From Clostridia bacterium (GTDB lineage: Bacteria; Bacillota; Clostridia; TANB77; CAG-465): a DNA stretch of 64,000 nt. Below, one piece after another: positions 7,915 through 40,113 of the stretch (position 1 is the stretch's first letter; each line of letters starts with the position of its first letter). The notes beneath the pieces were generated by a model. The model was not told the origin of the DNA. It searched no databases and saw only the letters and a program-made list of their open reading frames with translations. The stretch is from assembly GCA_045536565.1 (NCBI GenBank), contig JAZSNU010000003.1, positions 1 to 64,000 of the forward strand, in the 5' to 3' direction. The position numbers and the translations under genes were made by a program.

Positions 7915-8976
7915 ATGTTTGATAAATTAGAAGAAGTAGAAAAAAGATATGAAGAGCTAAATAAATTAATATCTGATCCAACAGTTATATCAGATCAAAA
8001 TAGTTTTAAAAAATATATGAAAGAACAATCTATGCTTACAGATGTTGTAGAAAAGTTTAGAGAGTACAAAAAAGTTAAATCTGCTATGGAAGATGCAGAA
8101 GAATTAATGACTGATCCTGAAATGAAAGAAATGGCGGAAATGGAATACTACGAAAACAAAGAGAAGATACCGGCGCTAGAAGAAGAGTTGAAAATATTGT
8201 TACTTCCTAAGGATGTAAATGATGATAACAATGTAATTATAGAAATTCGTGGAGGTGCAGGTGGCGAAGAAGCTGCATTATTTGCGTATAATTTATATAG
8301 AATGTATTCAATGTATGCCGATAGTATGCATTGGCAAGTAGAAGTATTAGACATTAACGAAACTGGAATTGGTGGAGTAAAAGAAGTATCGTTTATGCTT
8401 AAAGGTAAAGGTGCATACAGCAAACTTAAATTTGAAAGTGGAGTTCATAGAGTGCAAAGAGTTCCTGAAACAGAAGCAAGTGGAAGAATACATACATCAA
8501 CTGTAACAGTAGCAGTTCTTCCTGAAATAGATGATGTAGAAGTAGAAATAAACACAAGTGATTTAAAAGTAGACACATATAGAGCAAGTGGAGCTGGTGG
8601 ACAACACATTAATAAAACAGAATCAGCAGTTAGAATAACACATATACCAACTGGGTTTGTAGTTGCTTGTCAAACTGAAAGATCTCAAATACAAAATAGA
8701 GAAACTGCCATGAAGATGTTAAGATCTAAACTTTATGAATATATGCAAGAAAAACAAATGGCTGAACAAGCAAATGAGAGAAAACTTCAAGTAGGCAGTG
8801 GTGCAAGAAGTGAAAAAATTAGAACATACAATTATCCTCAAAATAGGGTAACTGACCATAGAATTAATTATACAATGTATCAATTAGATTCATTTATGAA
8901 TGGAAATATAATTGATATGGTAGAAGCACTTCAAGCAGCAGATAAGGCTGAAAGATTAAAAATGGGAGAAGAATAA
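7915..8976 (+). CDS. prfA: Peptide chain release factor 1
   Basis: GGQ motif (GAGGQHIN), PxT anticodon mimic (RVPETE), IRTYNYPQ. Confidence 0.97.
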
Positions 8977-33886: not shown

Positions 33887-35602
33887 TTGAAGGTGAAAAG
33901 TAAAAAGGGGATTTCAAAAATATCTATATTATTAATAATTTTAATTATACTAGGTATTGGGGTAGGAATAATGTTTTTTGTAAAACATTCTTTATCACCA
34001 AATAGCGATAGCCTATTTAATATAGGAGAAAGTAAAAATGGTGAAATAAGCTATTCTTTTAATAATAAAGAAAACTATATAGCAGTTAAAAACAAAGATG
34101 AAAAGTATGGTTTTATAGATACTAATGGGAATCAAAAAATTGATTTTAAATATGAGTATGCAGAAGATTATATTAACGGGTTAGCAATTGTACATAATGA
34201 AGATTATGAGGAAGGTATTATTGACACAAAAGGTAATGAAGTAGTTAAATTTGGTGAGTTTAGTAATATTTATAGATATAATGAATCTCAAAATGTAATC
34301 AGTGAATATTCAAATATATTTATAGCTACTACTGATGATGGACAAAAGAAGTTAATAAATAAAGATGGAAAAGTTGTAACATCAAATGCTTATGAGGACA
34401 TTGATGAAAAAAATGGCATAGTATATTTTGAAAACAATGGTAAATATGGATTATTAGATGTAAATGGTAAAGAGATACTTACTAGTAATGAAGAATTTGA
34501 TGTTGAAGATACTTGCGACTCGCTCTCTGTATTAAGCTTTGATAATTGTAATAAAATAATAAATAATACTACAGGTAAAGTACTAAAAGAAATTGAAGCA
34601 GAGTCATATGCTAGTATTAGTAAACATGGGGATTATTATGAAGTACAAAATATAGTAATAATAAAGGATAATAAAGTTGTTTATACAGGAGATGAACATC
34701 ACAGTATTATAGATATAAACGAAGATGAAATAGTACATTTGCAAGGTATAGATAGTTACAATATTGATGAAGATAATAGGTATATTTATGGAGATATATA
34801 TTATAGTTTAAAAATCAATAAAAATATTTTGGAAATTCCAAAAGACGAAGAAGCTAGATTATCAAACACCGCTGTATTGCTAAATAAATTAGTGGTATAT
34901 GAAGAAAATGAGGAACTTTATAGTGTAGATAAAAATGGAAATAAAACAAAAATTTCAAATATAAGTGGGAAAAAGTTGGAAGCAGGAATAGGTGACAATA
35001 TAGTAGTTCTTGGTGACGACAAATATAATTATATTATTATGGATATTGAATCAAAGAAAAATATAAGAGAAGTAGGACATTATATATCAGTACAAAATTC
35101 ATTAGAAAATCTTTATGGTGAAGTTTATGAAGGCCTTTATTATATAAAAGAAAATGAACATTTAATCAATAATGAATATAACGCAGATCCAAACTTAAAA
35201 GAATATGAATATATTGTAGATTCTAATTTAAACAAAATATCTGAGGATGTGGAATGTAGAGCATATTATTCTGCTAATAATGTTTTAGATTTTACATATA
35301 GATTGACAGGAAAAAACTACATATTATTAATGGATAAAAACGAAAAATATGGCTTAATAGATAATAAGGGAAATAATATAGTAGAGTTTAAATATACTGG
35401 TGTACAAAGAGATATGATTTTATATGATAATGTACCAGTTGTTATATTTAATAAAGATAATGGTGTAGATATATATGATTTATCAAAGGAAAAAGTAATA
35501 TTGTCATTAGAGGAGTCAATAGCAATATTATGTGAAAATTATATTAGGGTAGATAATAAAATATATAACTATGATGGAAAATTAATATATACCGAACAAT
35601 AA
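33887..35602 (+). CDS. WG-repeat (KWG-type) membrane-anchored protein
   Basis: N-terminal TM; repeated KYG(F/L)ID..G.......Y motifs (KYGFIDTNG, KYGLLDVNG, KYGLIDNKG). Confidence 0.8.
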   Translation: MKVKSKKGISKISILLIILIILGIGVGIMFFVKHSLSPNSDSLFNIGESKNGEISYSFNNKENYIAVKNKDEKYGFIDTNGNQKIDFKYEYAEDYINGLAIVHNEDYEEGIIDTKGNEVVKFGEFSNIYRYNESQNVISEYSNIFIATTDDGQKKLINKDGKVVTSNAYEDIDEKNGIVYFENNGKYGLLDVNGKEILTSNEEFDVEDTCDSLSVLSFDNCNKIINNTTGKVLKEIEAESYASISKHGDYYEVQNIVIIKDNKVVYTGDEHHSIIDINEDEIVHLQGIDSYNIDEDNRYIYGDIYYSLKINKNILEIPKDEEARLSNTAVLLNKLVVYEENEELYSVDKNGNKTKISNISGKKLEAGIGDNIVVLGDDKYNYIIMDIESKKNIREVGHYISVQNSLENLYGEVYEGLYYIKENEHLINNEYNADPNLKEYEYIVDSNLNKISEDVECRAYYSANNVLDFTYRLTGKNYILLMDKNEKYGLIDNKGNNIVEFKYTGVQRDMILYDNVPVVIFNKDNGVDIYDLSKEKVILSLEESIAILCENYIRVDNKIYNYDGKLIYTEQ

Positions 35603-35614
35603 AGGAGCATATAG

Positions 35615-36922
35615 ATGAATCAAAATATAAAAACATTTGAAGAATTTAAAGAAATATATAATTCTGCTGAATTTAAAGAATTGTTAAAGAAAGCAAATAA
35701 AGTAAAAAAACAATATAGAAAACTTGTTATAATCACACTTATATGGGGAATACCTGCAATATTTTTAATGATGCTAGCACCATTACTTGGATTTGGTTTA
35801 ATGGCAGTAGGTATTATATTTGAAATTATAGTATTTGGTAAGAAATTTATAATAACATATCCTAACTTTTATAGAACTGAAATACCTTTTATGATAGCAA
35901 AATTAAGTGATATAGAGTTATCAACAGTTGATGTACCGGAGAAGAAATATTTTAATGAAGAAGAATATAATAATATGACTATGTCGGAACAATTTAAAGA
36001 AGGTGCAAAAGGTGAAAAAACAAAAAAATACTTAGAAGAATTAGATGATAATATACACAAAATGAGTATTATAAATACAAAGCAATTTGAAACTTCTAAA
36101 ATTGCTCTTGCAGATGAATATTATACTTCTAATATAGCAAGATTTAAGCACAATAATACTGATACAACTATTGATTTTTATTATGCTACTGCTATGAAAG
36201 TAGAGAAAGTAAAACGAAGAAGAAAAAGAGCAAATGCTGAAAATTATAGTGGTGATGATAAGTATGTGACATATACCGAGAGAAAAGAAAAAATTCTAAC
36301 ATCCGGAGTAGTGTTTACATTTGAAAATCTGCATAATATAAATTTAAAAGATTTTAGAATATTAATAAAAGATGATGACACATTACTTTCTCGTTTAACT
36401 GAAAATACTATTGATAATTTAAAAGAAAACAAAAATGAGATAAAATTTAATAGGATTGATTTAAATAAAAGTTTTGATTTTTATGCTTTTAGCGAGGATA
36501 AAAACAAAGATGTAAAAGTAGAAGCACTGCAAATTGTTACACCAGTTGTTGAAGATTTAATATCATATATTAGAAAAAAATATGGTAGATTTAATATGGC
36601 AATTACAAATAATAAAATAGATATAGAGCTTTTAAATACAAGTATGGTAGGTGGAAATAAAAAACATTATAAAGATATAATCATAAAACCTACATTATTT
36701 AGTAATAATGACTTAAAGATAAGTTATTTGTATAGATTTTATGAACTTATCGAAATACAAAAATTAATATTAAAATATTTAAATTGTTATCCTGAAAAAT
36801 ACTTAATAACAGAAGATGATGTTAATGGATTAAAAGAAGCTATAGAAAGTAATAAATTAAGTGATTATGAAATGGACAAGTCTGTTCAAGAAACATATAG
36901 GCAAATTGTAGGGGGTATGTAA
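35615..36922 (+). CDS. Two-TM membrane protein (DUF3137-like) associated with LemA
   Basis: N-terminal TM hairpin; LNKSFDFYA....VEALQIVTP resembles the DUF3137 core; directly upstream of lemA. Confidence 0.5.
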   Translation: MNQNIKTFEEFKEIYNSAEFKELLKKANKVKKQYRKLVIITLIWGIPAIFLMMLAPLLGFGLMAVGIIFEIIVFGKKFIITYPNFYRTEIPFMIAKLSDIELSTVDVPEKKYFNEEEYNNMTMSEQFKEGAKGEKTKKYLEELDDNIHKMSIINTKQFETSKIALADEYYTSNIARFKHNNTDTTIDFYYATAMKVEKVKRRRKRANAENYSGDDKYVTYTERKEKILTSGVVFTFENLHNINLKDFRILIKDDDTLLSRLTENTIDNLKENKNEIKFNRIDLNKSFDFYAFSEDKNKDVKVEALQIVTPVVEDLISYIRKKYGRFNMAITNNKIDIELLNTSMVGGNKKHYKDIIIKPTLFSNNDLKISYLYRFYELIEIQKLILKYLNCYPEKYLITEDDVNGLKEAIESNKLSDYEMDKSVQETYRQIVGGM

Positions 36923-36924
36923 TT

Positions 36925-37491
36925 ATGTGGATAATAGTAGTAATAGGTATAGTGGTTTTACTAGCTATAATAAGCTATAATAGTTTGATTAATAAAAGAA
37001 ATTCAGTAGATAATGCTTTATCTACGATAGATACTTGTTTGCAAACTAGACTAGATCTAATGAGTAATTTATTTGAACAAGTAGATATAGCTTTTGATCA
37101 TGAAAGTAAATTGTATAAAGAAATTGTTGAACTAAGAACTAAACAAGAAGCATTAAAAGAAGAATATAATAAAGAAAACAAAAATGTTGTTGTTATGGAT
37201 AAAGAAATTTCAAAGTTAAATAAAGAATATTTAATTGTTTGTGAAAATTATCCTGAATTAAGGTCAATTGAAGCCGTTACAGTGGCAATGAATGCGAATG
37301 TAGAAGTAGAAAATCAAATAAATGCTGCAAGAAGAAATTATAATAACAATGTTCAAAGTTATAGAAACGGAATACAAAGTTTTCCTAATGTTATATTTGC
37401 AGGAATATTAGGTTTTAGAAATACTTATGAATTATATAAAGCGGAAGAACAAGCCAAAGAAAAAGTAAGGCCTAGTGATTTTATAAAATAA
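36925..37491 (+). CDS. lemA: LemA family protein
   Basis: TM followed by YNSL..KRN.VDNA.S.ID..LQ.R.DL; ENYPEL; ENQI.AARR.YN..V..Y...IQSFP. Confidence 0.9.
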   Translation: MWIIVVIGIVVLLAIISYNSLINKRNSVDNALSTIDTCLQTRLDLMSNLFEQVDIAFDHESKLYKEIVELRTKQEALKEEYNKENKNVVVMDKEISKLNKEYLIVCENYPELRSIEAVTVAMNANVEVENQINAARRNYNNNVQSYRNGIQSFPNVIFAGILGFRNTYELYKAEEQAKEKVRPSDFIK

Positions 37492-37543: not shown

Positions 37544-37690
37544 ATATATAAATAATTTTAAAAAAAATGCAAATACTATATATTGAAACTATTTAAAAAG
37601 ATTATATAATTTGTTGTAAAAAAGAATGTAATATGATATAAGTAAGTTAAGAAATTTCGTTTAAAAAACATAAGATGAAAGGGAATATAT

Positions 37691-38674
37691 ATGAAAAGAA
37701 AATTTTTGATACGCACAATAATTTTATTATCCTTTATATTTTTAACTATACCTAGAATTTTTGCTATGCCAATATATGTACATACTTTAACAGGGAAACA
37801 AATTATTGTAGAAGTAGAAACTAGTGATACTATTGAAGCAGTGAAGACTAAAATCCAAGATAAAGAGGGAATACCACCAGAGGAGCAAATACTTATTTTT
37901 GATGAGAAAGAATTAGAAGCTGGAAGAACTTTGGCAGATTACAATATTGAAATACAAGACACGGTTAATATAGTTTTAATGTTAAAAAATAACTTTAAAG
38001 TTCAATATAATATAACTAATTTAAAAGTAACTACAAATAATGTAATTACAGATGGGGATTTAGGAAATAATACTTATATTGTTTCAATAACTGAGAACTT
38101 CACGGCAAAATTAGAAGCAAATCAAGGATATAAATTACCTGACATTATTAACATTAAAGTAGGCGAGTTAGCATTAGATAATTCGGAATATACATACAAC
38201 TCTCAAACAGGAGAAATTGTTATAGATAAAGATAATATTACAGGAGACATTACTATTGATGCTACGGCTGTGCAACTTAGTTATAAAGTTGAGTTTGATG
38301 CAAACGATGGAGTATTTAAAGAAAATATAAAAACATTTATAATTCAAGAATGGAAAAGTGGAGATGAAAAAACACTTGAAGAGCCAATTAGAGAAGGATA
38401 TAAATTTTTAGGATATTACACAGAAAGAATAGGTGGAACAAAATTAGAAAGCTATATTGCAGAAGCAGGTATTGATAAAGATCTAACTTTCTATGCACAT
38501 TGGGAAGAGAATTCAAGTCAAGCAGATGGGCCAATTTTAGAAGATGGGAACAGTGAAATAGATAATAATCCTCAAACAAGCGATAATATATTACTGTTTG
38601 TTGTAATTCTGTTTGTATCAGTATTTAGTTTGATAATAACAAGCAAGTCAATAAAAAAATATAATACAAAATAA
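37691..38674 (+). CDS. Secreted cell-surface protein: signal peptide, eukaryotic-like ubiquitin domain, InlB B-repeat-type domains, NPQT sorting signal
   Basis: Residues 26-101 align without gaps to ubiquitin (48/76 identical by manual count); FDANDG...[11 protein letters not shown]...TFYAHW repeat; NPQTSD, TM and basic tail. Confidence 0.88.
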
Positions 38675-38691: not shown

Positions 38692-38737
38692 ACAAACTAT
38701 CACCTTATATCATAAAATATGATATGAGGTGATTTTT
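38692..38737 (+). promoter_or_regulatory. Hairpin occluding the yabG RBS, containing a sigma-K-like promoter
   Basis: 16-bp stem atcaccttatatcata/tatgatatgaggtgat (one G-U pair); ACA-16 nt-CATAAAATA. Confidence 0.55.
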
Positions 38738-39735: not shown

Positions 39736-40113
39736 ATGAATATGGGAAAGATTTATAGTCCTGGCGATATTGTGTTTTTTAAGAATGTGAAATTAATTCA
39801 ATATAATGGTTTAAAAGTGCTAGATACTAGAATTAATGGTCATCCATATATAATATTAAATGATGTGGATGATTTTGGTGAAGTAGCATTTTGTTTGATT
39901 TGTTCATCAAATGAAAAGAATAAACGGAGAAAGAACCATATTCATATTAAGAAAGCAAAAGTTAGAGGCGATAAAACCAGAGAAACATATGTAAATATAG
40001 AAAATGTATATAAATTTGAAATTGATAAAGTTATTGCGCCAGTAGGACGAGTATCCAATATAGTTTTAAATGAATTAAAAGAGAAGGTAAAAAAGAAGAA
40101 TTATTTTAATTAA
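39736..40113 (+). CDS. PemK/MazF-fold-like protein (putative endoribonuclease), no adjacent antitoxin gene
   Basis: The pattern GDIVF...GHPYIIL...CLICSS...TYVNIENVYKF....VGRVS...L..L parallels PemK (GDI...RP.LVIS...PITS...S.V...QI....IG.L). The match is divergent. Confidence 0.5.
   Translation: MNMGKIYSPGDIVFFKNVKLIQYNGLKVLDTRINGHPYIILNDVDDFGEVAFCLICSSNEKNKRRKNHIHIKKAKVRGDKTRETYVNIENVYKFEIDKVIAPVGRVSNIVLNELKEKVKKKNYFN

Follow-up and report, generated by a model that had tools for sequence, protein, structure and literature searches.

A ubiquitin-family domain heading a putatively sortase-anchored surface protein in a Clostridia bacterium

The window analyzed here is a stretch of 64,000 nucleotides of a Clostridia bacterium (assembly GCA_045536565.1, contig JAZSNU010000003.1, positions 1 to 64,000), whose genome is small, has a GC content of 28% and carries Spo0A and YabG; the organism is a spore-forming gut Firmicute. 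The gene under study encodes a signal peptide, a ubiquitin-family domain, a stalk and a sorting signal in succession (Table 1). It is flanked by genes for ValRS, a WG-repeat protein, an unnamed 435-residue protein, LemA, YabG and a MazF-like protein, with LemA and YabG as its immediate neighbors and the MazF-like gene two genes downstream; no E1-, E2- or JAB-type genes were found among the about 6–8 flanking genes scanned. The promoter-like site is located 3' of the inverted repeat that closes the LemA gene. On inspection, the internal ATG at 37766, where the ubiquitin domain begins, has no upstream Shine-Dalgarno-like site comparable to that of the start codon.

Table 1. Features of the ubiquitin-stalk gene and its flanks, in window coordinates.
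Feature	Position	Strand	Basis
Promoter-like site, TTGAAA-16-TATAAT	37583..37610	+	Consensus scan, 11/12 matched; a consensus match only
Shine-Dalgarno-like site, AAAGGGA	37678..37684	+	By inspection; ATG 6 nt further on
Whole CDS (P0001), 327 aa	37691..38674	+	ORF listing
Signal peptide, residues 1–25, ending IFA before Met26	37691..37765	+	By inspection
Ubiquitin-family domain, residues 26–101, without C-terminal Gly-Gly	37766..37993	+	Pfam, phmmer
Domain A, residues 102–195, beta-rich stalk module without a named family	37994..38275	+	Pfam null result, model of a homologue
Flg_new/InlB B-repeat domain, residues 196–273	38276..38509	+	PF09479, TIGR02543
Acidic/polar linker, residues 274–292	38510..38566	+	Alignment A1, columns 301–405
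Sorting motif NPQTSD, residues 293–298	38567..38584	+	Alignment A1: P294, T296 and D298 conserved at 90% or more
Hydrophobic segment (residues 299–318) and basic tail KSIKKYNTK (319–327)	38585..38671	+	By sequence
Terminator-like hairpin and T run	38699..38733	+	Scan, 1 observed vs 0.2 expected; directly before the yabG start

The signal peptide has a basic n-region (MKRK) and a 17-residue hydrophobic run leading to RIFA. In alignment A1, which comprises 34 members of the family to which the protein belongs, this region is conserved in all 34, M26 is invariant and A25 is conserved at 90% or more. The Pfam family PF00240 was matched at residues 28–96 (E 9.6e-21; 73.8 bits, cut-off 25.4; profile positions 1–69 of 72), as it was in each of the 34 members, and a phmmer search of the PDB aligned residues 26–102 without gaps to the repeats of human polyubiquitin. 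Counted from the printed phmmer midline, 48 of 76 positions are identical to human ubiquitin, and three eukaryotic ubiquitin variants gave 47–51. The hydrophobic patch residues L8, I44 and V70 and the lysines K11, K27, K29, K33 and K48 are kept, while the changes include K6H, K63I, R42I, H68N, R72M, G75N and G76N. On all of these points (the 25-residue signal peptide ending IFA, the domain running from Met1 at 37766 to 37993, the gap-free 48/76 match, and the kept and lost residues) the first-pass annotation, made from the sequence without database searches, proved correct, and its view of a true ubiquitin-family domain, ultimately of eukaryotic origin, is likewise supported.

In place of the ubiquitin C-terminal tail the polypeptide reads LMLKNN-FKV, with N-N at positions 75–76. 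Lacking Gly-Gly and continuing directly into domain A, this ubiquitin cannot be conjugated, just as had been proposed; a conjugatable ubiquitin or ubiquitin-like modifier has a free or processable C-terminal Gly-Gly, and the window protein has neither.

Two InlB-B-repeat-like domains had been read in the stalk, of which one was upheld. PF09479 was detected at residues 198–270 (E 4e-8, 33.6 bits against a cut-off of 27; 3e-9 when this part was searched alone), and TIGR02543 also matched the stalk (23.0 bits against 20.95). Domain A, however, had no Pfam hit even when the threshold was relaxed to E 10, and the two-repeat reading was dropped because hhalign gave domain A a probability of only 0.6% of sharing a profile with the Flg_new part. 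Our view of its structure comes from an Atlas model of the homologue P0091 (pTM 0.44, pLDDT 0.70) and not of the window protein itself; residues 100–197 of that model resemble unnamed parts of bacterial surface proteins with TM scores of 0.74–0.83, and domain A also matches repeat units within giant Flg_new proteins. The linker that follows varies in length across the family, reaching about 100 residues in alignment A1.

The motif NPQTSD, which begins 35 residues before the end of the protein, precedes a largely hydrophobic stretch of 20 residues and a tail with KK at 322–323; the order of motif, membrane segment and basic tail is as first annotated. Sortase substrates are defined, in the outline given in PMC4155245, by an N-terminal signal peptide and, towards the C-terminus, a motif with a hydrophobic segment and basic tail behind it, and the predicted protein fits this description. 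All three sortase genes of the genome are of class B (TIGR03064, above cut-off), and each adjoins a candidate substrate; two ORFs of the genome other than the ubiquitin-stalk gene carry NPNTSD and the same tail, one of them next to a class B sortase gene. None of the three adjoins the ubiquitin-stalk gene itself, whereas both family members for which DNA context is available (L015 and L016) have a class B sortase gene next to them; that of L015 lies on the same strand and starts 62 nt downstream. The complete sorting signal, the three class B sortases and the Spo0A- and YabG-bearing Firmicute background support the earlier proposal of sortase-anchored display in a Gram-positive organism, and a class B sortase very probably attaches the protein to the wall.

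We are highly confident in an overall reading of the gene as encoding a secreted, class B sortase-anchored protein with a Met1-ubiquitin tip on a stalk of domain A, Flg_new repeat and linker, the tip being a codon-adapted, non-conjugatable domain that is ultimately eukaryotic in origin. Cleavage of the signal peptide would leave a mature chain starting exactly at ubiquitin Met1, and the three stalk elements would hold the ubiquitin away from the wall. On this reading the domain arrived in this genome within a bacterial gene family, and it has fully adopted host codon usage.

Eukaryotic ubiquitin does contaminate bacterial assemblies: an actinomycete assembly contains an 845-bp contig of plain polyubiquitin (L022). 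It might be suspected that here, too, an assembly chimera or contaminating eukaryotic sequence has been fused to a bacterial gene, particularly as no public run contains more than 0.10 of the words of the stretch. Against this, the gene is embedded in a contig of 144 kb, its codon composition is native (GC 30% and GC3 0.20 in the ubiquitin part, for a genome GC of 28%), a single unbroken reading frame covers signal peptide, ubiquitin and stalk, and the same junctions are found in 41 independent protein clusters. Contigs from three other metagenome runs, 79–93% identical, bridge the passage from the upstream region through the signal peptide into ubiquitin and that from ubiquitin into domain A, and continue into yabG. 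None of the public runs listed as sharing words with the stretch was an RNA run. The chance of an artefact is in our estimate negligible, and the misassembly that the first-pass annotation had wished to see excluded is ruled out to the extent that contigs allow.

Nor is the gene a lone oddity. The same architecture is present in at least 41 of the 119 other protein clusters listed, and this family falls within a wider class of surface proteins with a signal peptide joined to ubiquitin. It had been foreseen that the architecture might prove widespread and already characterized as an inert structural domain; widespread it is, but in the literature searched it is not so characterized. Among 40 relatives searched, five of them congeners, the gene was not found, and its reading as an accessory, patchily distributed gene is supported. 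A search with the stalk part alone retrieved 9684 proteins at E ≤ 0.001, of which 310 reached E ≤ 1e-30; the majority are giant multi-repeat surface proteins. Three paralogous stalks carry other heads. In P0183 and P0192, where domain A and Flg_new are followed by an NPQTSD/NPSTGD anchor, the heads are BspA-type LRR domains (PF13306, E 1e-60 and 3e-37), and in P0252 there is an unnamed head of 270 residues. Since the same stalk bears BspA-type LRR heads in these paralogs, ubiquitin occupies the position of a binding head.

Beyond the stalk family, a signal peptide and Met1-ubiquitin are joined to dockerins (L019, L023 and L026), to an autotransporter beta-domain (L017) and to choice-of-anchor U domains (L018, twice, and L024); a further protein, L028, combines ubiquitin with an IPTL-CTERM signal and has no readable signal peptide. 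A scan of 80 metagenome loci returned mostly eukaryotic polyubiquitin, with clear signal-peptide-ubiquitin genes only at L097 and L146 and no member of the ubiquitin-stalk family. Across 20 bacterial genes the GC3 of the ubiquitin part tracks the flanking GC (0.12–0.83, r = 0.90), and 180 of the 190 pairs are close to saturated at synonymous sites, while mean pN is 0.144; the substitution figures are qualitative only, as Nei-Gojobori proportions exceed 1 in many lineage pairs and AT-biased codons compress dS within the family. Separate acquisitions from eukaryotes could partly account for the low pN and saturated pS among bacterial lineages, because eukaryotic ubiquitin genes differ from one another in the same way. 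A tree of 72 columns and 66 rows, from which BfUbb and NEDD8 were left out, leaves 39 of 62 inner branches unresolved and so cannot decide between one acquisition and several.

The pattern of conservation bears on whether the domain is merely an inert structural cap, an end domain that is compact and stable, folds fast and resists proteases, with selection acting on its fold alone. Several observations agree with this. The window copy keeps a hydrophobic residue at all 14 core positions (11 identical, 3 conservative) but has drifted on its surface, and its dN/dS relative to L015 is not lower in ubiquitin (0.45) than in domain A (0.28), although these are rough values under strongly AT-biased codon usage. 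Within the family the band around the I44 patch (0.82) and the lysines (0.87) are conserved little above the domain average (0.79), and no single interface is prominent. Other observations speak for more than a fold. No part of the family is better conserved than ubiquitin (mean pairwise identity of 70%, as against 57% for each of the stalk domains), and non-core positions, the core being taken as the hydrophobic core of ubiquitin, are identical to eukaryotic ubiquitin at 76–79% in the family and 85–89% in other bacteria, despite saturated synonymous sites and ameliorated GC3. LRR binding domains fill the head position in the paralogs, and the junction of signal peptide and Met1 is exact in 18 of the 20 bacterial genes, a precision needless for a mere cap. 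We consider an inert cap unlikely.

That the whole surface, and not one patch, stays near eukaryotic ubiquitin in most family members would also suit antigenic camouflage, in which a near-self outermost epitope draws less antibody (secretory IgA, for example) or provokes cross-reactive anti-ubiquitin antibody, with no partner being bound. Those family members whose records are named, like the runs that bridge the junctions, come from animal gut or faeces, and BfUbb, the secreted ubiquitin homologue of Bacteroides fragilis, is described in the available accounts as cross-reactive with anti-ubiquitin antibody and an antigenic mimic (PMC3352274; PMC6194340). However, the signal-peptide-ubiquitin design also occurs in bacteria whose records are labelled sludge, water or marine isolate, where there is no adaptive immune system to evade, and the window copy differs from eukaryotic ubiquitin at 25–29 of 76 positions, mostly on the surface, so that it would not pass as self. 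Camouflage appears to us an improbable explanation.

The window copy is itself an outlier. Among the 66 rows of the tree its head has the longest terminal branch (0.54) and keeps 47 of 72 positions, and its net charge of −9 ties for the lowest, compared with −1 in 13 of the 14 eukaryotic rows and 0 in the other. Around I44 the substitutions K6H, R42I, A46D, G47E, Q49E, H68N and R72M remove the basic rim. Compared with its relatives, the protein is no better conserved in ubiquitin (59% identity) than in the two stalk domains (60% and 58%). For these reasons (branch length, charge and lost rim) the interpretation as a ubiquitin mimic, put forward in the first-pass annotation, suits the relatives better than the window copy, which is the least ubiquitin-like member of the family. 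As the most divergent and most acidic member, its predicted fidelity as a mimic is doubtful; either its partner has altered, or constraint on it is relaxing.

As to mechanism, the reading that we favor, though tentatively and at somewhat below even chances, is that of a display stalk with ubiquitin as its functional head, acting as a ligand or mimic bound by eukaryotic ubiquitin-recognizing molecules. These might belong to the animal host or to gut protists, and the effect might be adhesion or a modulated response of the eukaryote. It counts against such a mechanism that eukaryotic ubiquitin receptors are mostly cytosolic, where a wall-anchored protein would not obviously reach them. Because unrelated lineages use differing anchors for ubiquitin, one may go further and see in the sortase, cellulosomal dockerin, autotransporter and exosortase-type versions a recurrent, undescribed bacterial strategy of engaging a universally recognized eukaryotic surface; this broader proposal is possible, but we would not call it likely. 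Under it, lineages sharing habitats with eukaryotes (animal hosts or grazing protists) might profit through adhesion, by evading digestion or grazing, or through immune tolerance, and the window gene would represent a diverging branch of the class.

Ubiquitin is the classic example of a signal found only in eukaryotes. Here a borrowed ubiquitin is put to a different use, very probably fixed outside Gram-positive cells on a stalk that elsewhere bears adhesin-type LRR heads, and other phyla repeat the design with different anchors. Should the head bind eukaryotic partners, it would offer a handle on how uncultured gut Firmicutes with small genomes deal with hosts or protists, and would raise the question of anti-ubiquitin cross-reactivity; should it serve as no more than a cap, nature would have provided an instance of ubiquitin as an extracellular folding module. 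In the literature searched, bacterial copies of ubiquitin are known solely in Bacteroides, as free toxins, and we found no account of wall-anchored, dockerin-borne or autotransporter-borne ubiquitin; ubiquitin-tipped bacterial surface proteins apparently form an undescribed family, a novelty on which the supplement of PMC11467351, covering bacterial homologues of BfUbb, may bear.

Near parallels among known systems include BfUbb (BUbb) and BoUbb, secreted ubiquitin homologues which, as outlined in PMC11467351, are imported through SusCD and kill related Bacteroides by way of a periplasmic PPIase. With BfUbb the window protein shares a horizontally acquired, non-conjugatable ubiquitin copy behind a signal peptide in a gut bacterium. 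BfUbb is, however, by its description, a free protein of about 76 residues that ends in Cys and is released, whereas here ubiquitin is the N-terminal head of an anchored mature protein of 302 residues without a terminal cysteine. This precedent invites the idea of an interbacterial weapon, a head perhaps released from the wall and toxic to competitors. Yet besides these differences in anchoring, length and terminus, the gene belongs to Gram-positive bacteria whose likely competitors have no route of import through SusCD and TonB, and no immunity-like gene was noted alongside, the neighbors being LemA, YabG and, at one remove, the MazF-like gene; we regard a weapon of the BfUbb kind as very unlikely.

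Eukaryotic ubiquitin and the window head are alike in their gap-free alignment over 76 residues, intact core, L8/I44/V70 patch and five of seven lysines; the head differs in being predicted to lie outside the cell, in its acidic charge, in the loss of K6, R42, H68 and R72, and in having neither Gly-Gly nor a free C-terminus. The free C-terminus of ubiquitin matters for its activity on CXCR4, and in this respect, too, the window head departs from it. In mammals, extracellular ubiquitin is reported as a CXCR4 ligand (PMC10892293), a precedent for the recognition of ubiquitin by a surface receptor outside cells, by analogy with which any binding by the window head would be purely hypothetical. 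A beta-grasp protein in a bacterium is also what the window gene has in common with operons of the Bil/Bub type. The protein of those operons is cytoplasmic, with an exposed C-terminal glycine, and is encoded beside E1, E2 and deubiquitinase genes; the window gene encodes a signal peptide and has no such neighbors among the flanking genes scanned.

With class B substrates (IsdC, NPQTN; C. difficile SrtB, (S/P)PXTG) the protein shares its signal peptide, NPQT-type motif, hydrophobic segment and basic tail, and class B sortase genes often adjoin their own substrates, according to the outline in PMC4155245; it differs in its motif (NPQTSD here, NPxTGD in relatives), in a cargo unrelated to haem uptake and in a cleavage that is predicted. 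With its one repeat it belongs among the Flg_new/Listeria-Bacteroides repeat proteins (PF09479, TIGR02543), which have at least one. Stalk modules and an anchor of this kind are common to the Flg_new/InlB-B surface proteins of Firmicutes, in which the heads are BspA-type LRR domains or unnamed, whereas here the head is ubiquitin.

The open reading frame called in the first-pass annotation is present in the window and codes for 327 residues. As that annotation had proposed, residues 1-25 resemble a signal peptide with IFA at its predicted end, and Met26 aligns with Met1 of ubiquitin. In a search of solved structures, every repeat of human polyubiquitin gave a gap-free alignment over residues 26-102, with the same 48 identities in 76 positions along the midline as in the earlier manual count; Pfam places PF00240 on residues 28-96 (E 9.6e-21; 73.8 bits, cut-off 25.4). 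The residues listed as kept (L8, I44, V70, K11, K27, K29, K33, K48) are all retained and those listed as lost are indeed changed (K6H, R42I, K63I, H68N, R72M), and the replacement of Gly-Gly by Asn-Asn strongly supports the claim of a head that would be non-conjugatable. The proposed pair of InlB-B-repeat stalk domains stood only in part: one Flg_new/InlB-B repeat occupies residues 198-270, and a second repeat was not detected. The beta-rich module between ubiquitin and this repeat (domain A, residues 102-195) matched no Pfam family and, sharing no profile similarity with the Flg_new part, was rejected as a second copy of it. A promoter-like site and a terminator-like hairpin belong to the ubiquitin gene itself, and a Shine-Dalgarno-like AAAGGGA lies six bases upstream of the first ATG; the internal Met26 codon has no ribosome site like it.

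The anchor proposed at the C-terminus was also recovered, with NPQTSD occupying residues 293-298 ahead of 20 hydrophobic residues and the tail KSIKKYNTK. A broader consensus, NP(Q/K)(T/S)(N/G/S)(D/A), also exists for class B sorting motifs. The genome encodes three sortases, all class B (TIGR03064 above cut-off), and in a census of C-terminal sorting signals three ORFs combined NP(N/Q)TSD with a hydrophobic stretch and a basic tail, one being the ubiquitin gene; another adjoins a class B sortase gene on contig 11, and the remaining two sortase genes have candidate substrates as neighbours, whose motifs are TPATGS and EPNTGI. Class B sortases tend to share operons with their substrates, for which NPQTN is a described motif, and the ubiquitin-stalk protein satisfies the published substrate definition of a motif 17-45 residues from the end, a hydrophobic segment and two basic residues (PMC4155245). 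There is strong support for a predicted secreted protein carrying a complete class B sorting signal.

The ubiquitin gene is genuine and native to this genome (1.13 Mb, 28% GC, rated 100% complete), whose genes for Spo0A and YabG place it in a genome-reduced lineage of endospore-formers. The gene sits within a 144-kb contig, and its ubiquitin-coding part has 30% GC and a GC3 of 0.20, similar to the remainder of the gene. The window stretch itself was found in no public run, the best run holding 0.10 of its words; contigs of three other faecal-metagenome runs, 79-93% identical, nevertheless span the junctions of upstream region, signal peptide and ubiquitin and of ubiquitin and domain A, one of them extending to the yabG side. 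With the junctions bridged and the composition host-like, an assembly chimera or contamination is an exceedingly improbable source of the gene. Among the 40 of 328 differences listed for these contigs, all three in the ubiquitin part are non-synonymous, and each gives the canonical ubiquitin residue in the relatives (L15, A28, D52). Some contigs of runs X1 and X3 diverge at the end of ubiquitin, reading ...LRGGKEIDD, which points to a relative that retains Gly-Gly and has another downstream part.

There is strong support for the ubiquitin gene being accessory in this genome. Using the whole protein as query, its ubiquitin part was matched in none of 40 relatives (5 at genus level, 19 at family level and 16 at order level), the matches there being confined to Flg_new segments, and PF00240 exceeded its cut-off in three genomes, the window's own among them, out of a sample of 400 from the class. 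The downstream gene yabG is present in all five congeners. In two of them (G004, G005) only a MazF-like gene of ~120 codons separates the valyl-tRNA synthetase gene from yabG; in the window this interval spans ~5.3 kb and holds the genes for the WG-repeat protein, the 435-aa protein, LemA and ubiquitin. The first three are located elsewhere in congener G003, without the ubiquitin gene, and together with it they form a variable region in the window. A paralogue of the window's MazF-like gene, 41-47% identical, precedes yabG in two congeners.

Positions in the window and in a related locus, and parts attached to ubiquitin in other bacteria (L017-L031 from profile search)
Locus	Source	Coordinates	Feature	Remark
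Window	Clostridia bacterium	33887-37491	WG-repeat protein, unnamed 435-aa membrane protein, LemA	~3.6 kb
Window	Clostridia bacterium	37691-38674 (+)	Ubiquitin gene	
Window	Clostridia bacterium	37766	Met26	
Window	Clostridia bacterium	37979	Divergence of X1/X3 contigs	
Window	Clostridia bacterium	39736-40113	MazF/PemK-like toxin gene, just past yabG	PF02452, E 2e-5
L015	Clostridia MAG	8180-8824	Phage-integrase-family recombinase gene	two genes on, directly past sortase gene
L019, L023, L026	Rumen or gut Clostridia		Dockerin	
L017	Marivivens		Autotransporter beta-domain	
L018 (two genes), L024	Rhodocyclaceae, Halieaceae		Choice-of-anchor U domain	
L028	Ottowia		IPTL-CTERM signal	no signal peptide readable in ORF
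L031			Flg_new repeats	

The protein's membership of a wider family is strongly supported. A protein search returned 649 matches, and at least 41 of the 119 other clusters listed share its build, at 44-65% identity across the full length, the remainder being eukaryotic polyubiquitins; two members, from a Clostridia and a Bacilli MAG, bear the NCBI name 'InlB B-repeat-containing protein'. When 34 members are aligned, Met26 never varies and conservation of Ala25 reaches at least 90%; the anchor reads NPxT(G/S/F)D and the linker runs from a few residues to ~100. Both members with DNA obtained (L015, L016) are labelled as ruminant hindgut MAGs and have class B sortase genes adjoining the ubiquitin-stalk gene; the nearby recombinase gene in L015 hints that this gene pair may be mobile. 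Two ubiquitin types occur in the family, the '[10 protein letters not shown]' type and the 'EPNDSIDAIK' type. The ubiquitin of member P0050 is identical to that of P0091 at 67/72 positions, and its Flg_new part at 32/78, against 65/78 with P0049, which suggests that the head may have been exchanged as a cassette between stalks. Within ubiquitin, Asn25 is found in none of the 34 members and most have Glu24-Ala25, a pair that among the 14 commonest eukaryotic variants sampled occurs only in Cafeteria (a stramenopile); as a pointer to the donor lineage this would be a weak lead.

Searched by itself, the stalk (residues 102-327) matches 9684 proteins at E <= 0.001, mostly giant multi-repeat surface proteins, to whose repeat units domain A is also similar. 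In some short relatives a stalk of this build, with domain A, one Flg_new repeat and an NPQTSD-type anchor, bears another head (for P0183 and P0192, BspA-type leucine-rich repeats, PF13306 at E 1e-60 and 3e-37; for P0252, an unnamed domain of 270 residues), so that ubiquitin takes the position of a binding head and the stalk would be its display scaffold.

A signal peptide running straight into Met1 of a near-eukaryotic ubiquitin recurs in Firmicutes and Proteobacteria, with an anchor of each lineage's own (loci L017, L018, L019, L020, L021, L023, L024, L026, L028, L030, L031, L097, L146, L175, L176). Species-genome and metagenome scans yielded 20 genes with a signal peptide and a single ubiquitin domain, the window's included; 18 have a predicted A-x-A cleavage site immediately before Met1, and the ubiquitin parts of the loci named above match eukaryotic variants at 49-72 of 76 positions. 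Two adjacent genes of 184 and 196 aa (L175/L180; genome G051, contig 46) each encode a signal peptide and ubiquitin, of differing types, with ~85-residue tails of no named family. Separately, an 845-bp contig of an actinomycete assembly (L022) carries a plain plant-type polyubiquitin, probably eukaryotic contamination and a reminder that ubiquitin matches on short contigs call for checking.

Mean pairwise identity within the stalk family is 70% for ubiquitin, 57% for both domain A and Flg_new, and 41% for the tail. Over 72 positions the family matches the common eukaryotic variant at 79%, the other bacterial signal-peptide-ubiquitins at 86%; these means are only slightly exceeded in the I44-patch band (0.82 for the family, 0.92 for the others) and at lysines (0.87 in both), and positions outside 14 core residues are 76-89% identical to eukaryotic ubiquitin. 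GC3 of the 20 bacterial segments ranges from 0.12 to 0.83 and tracks flanking GC (r = 0.90, with some pairs drawn from a shared locus); synonymous proportions reach at least 0.6 in 180 of 190 pairs, with a mean non-synonymous proportion of 0.144. We read this as a ubiquitin probably long resident in bacteria and under purifying selection over the whole domain, although between lineages independent uptake from eukaryotes would leave much the same pattern.

The window's copy is a diverged member: in a poorly resolved tree of 66 rows its terminal branch (0.54) is the longest, and it retains 47 of 72 positions. Its ubiquitin part is 59% identical to relatives, the stalk parts 60% and 58%, and all 14 core positions are still hydrophobic. 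It carries a net charge of -9 over 72 residues, a tie for the lowest value among the 66 rows; 13 of 14 eukaryotic rows have -1 and one 0. The L8/I44/H68/V70 patch, together with R42 and R72, is the surface recognised by E1 and by most ubiquitin-binding domains. Since the basic rim round I44 is gone (K6H, R42I, H68N, R72M), with A46D, G47E and Q49E added, canonical recognition of this copy is probably weakened.

We tentatively propose that the head is displayed to host or protist molecules that recognise ubiquitin, and might serve as ligand, adhesin or mimic. That no single interface is privileged is a weak point of this reading. An inert structural cap is an unlikely alternative. A second weak point is that such receptors are mostly cytosolic and the ubiquitin extracellular; extracellular ubiquitin acting on CXCR4 in mammals provides a precedent (review, PMC10892293). 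Antigenic camouflage by a eukaryote-like head is as doubtful as the cap.

The interest lies in the family as a whole, of which the window's copy is only a diverged member; a literature search covering main texts found no description of a wall-anchored, dockerin-borne or autotransporter-borne ubiquitin. The closest known relative of the ubiquitin-stalk protein is BfUbb/BUbb of Bacteroides, a free secreted homologue 63% identical to human ubiquitin that kills related strains (PMC11467351). A weapon of this kind is very unlikely here: BfUbb is free and ends in Cys, and the window's protein, being neither, is not of that type.
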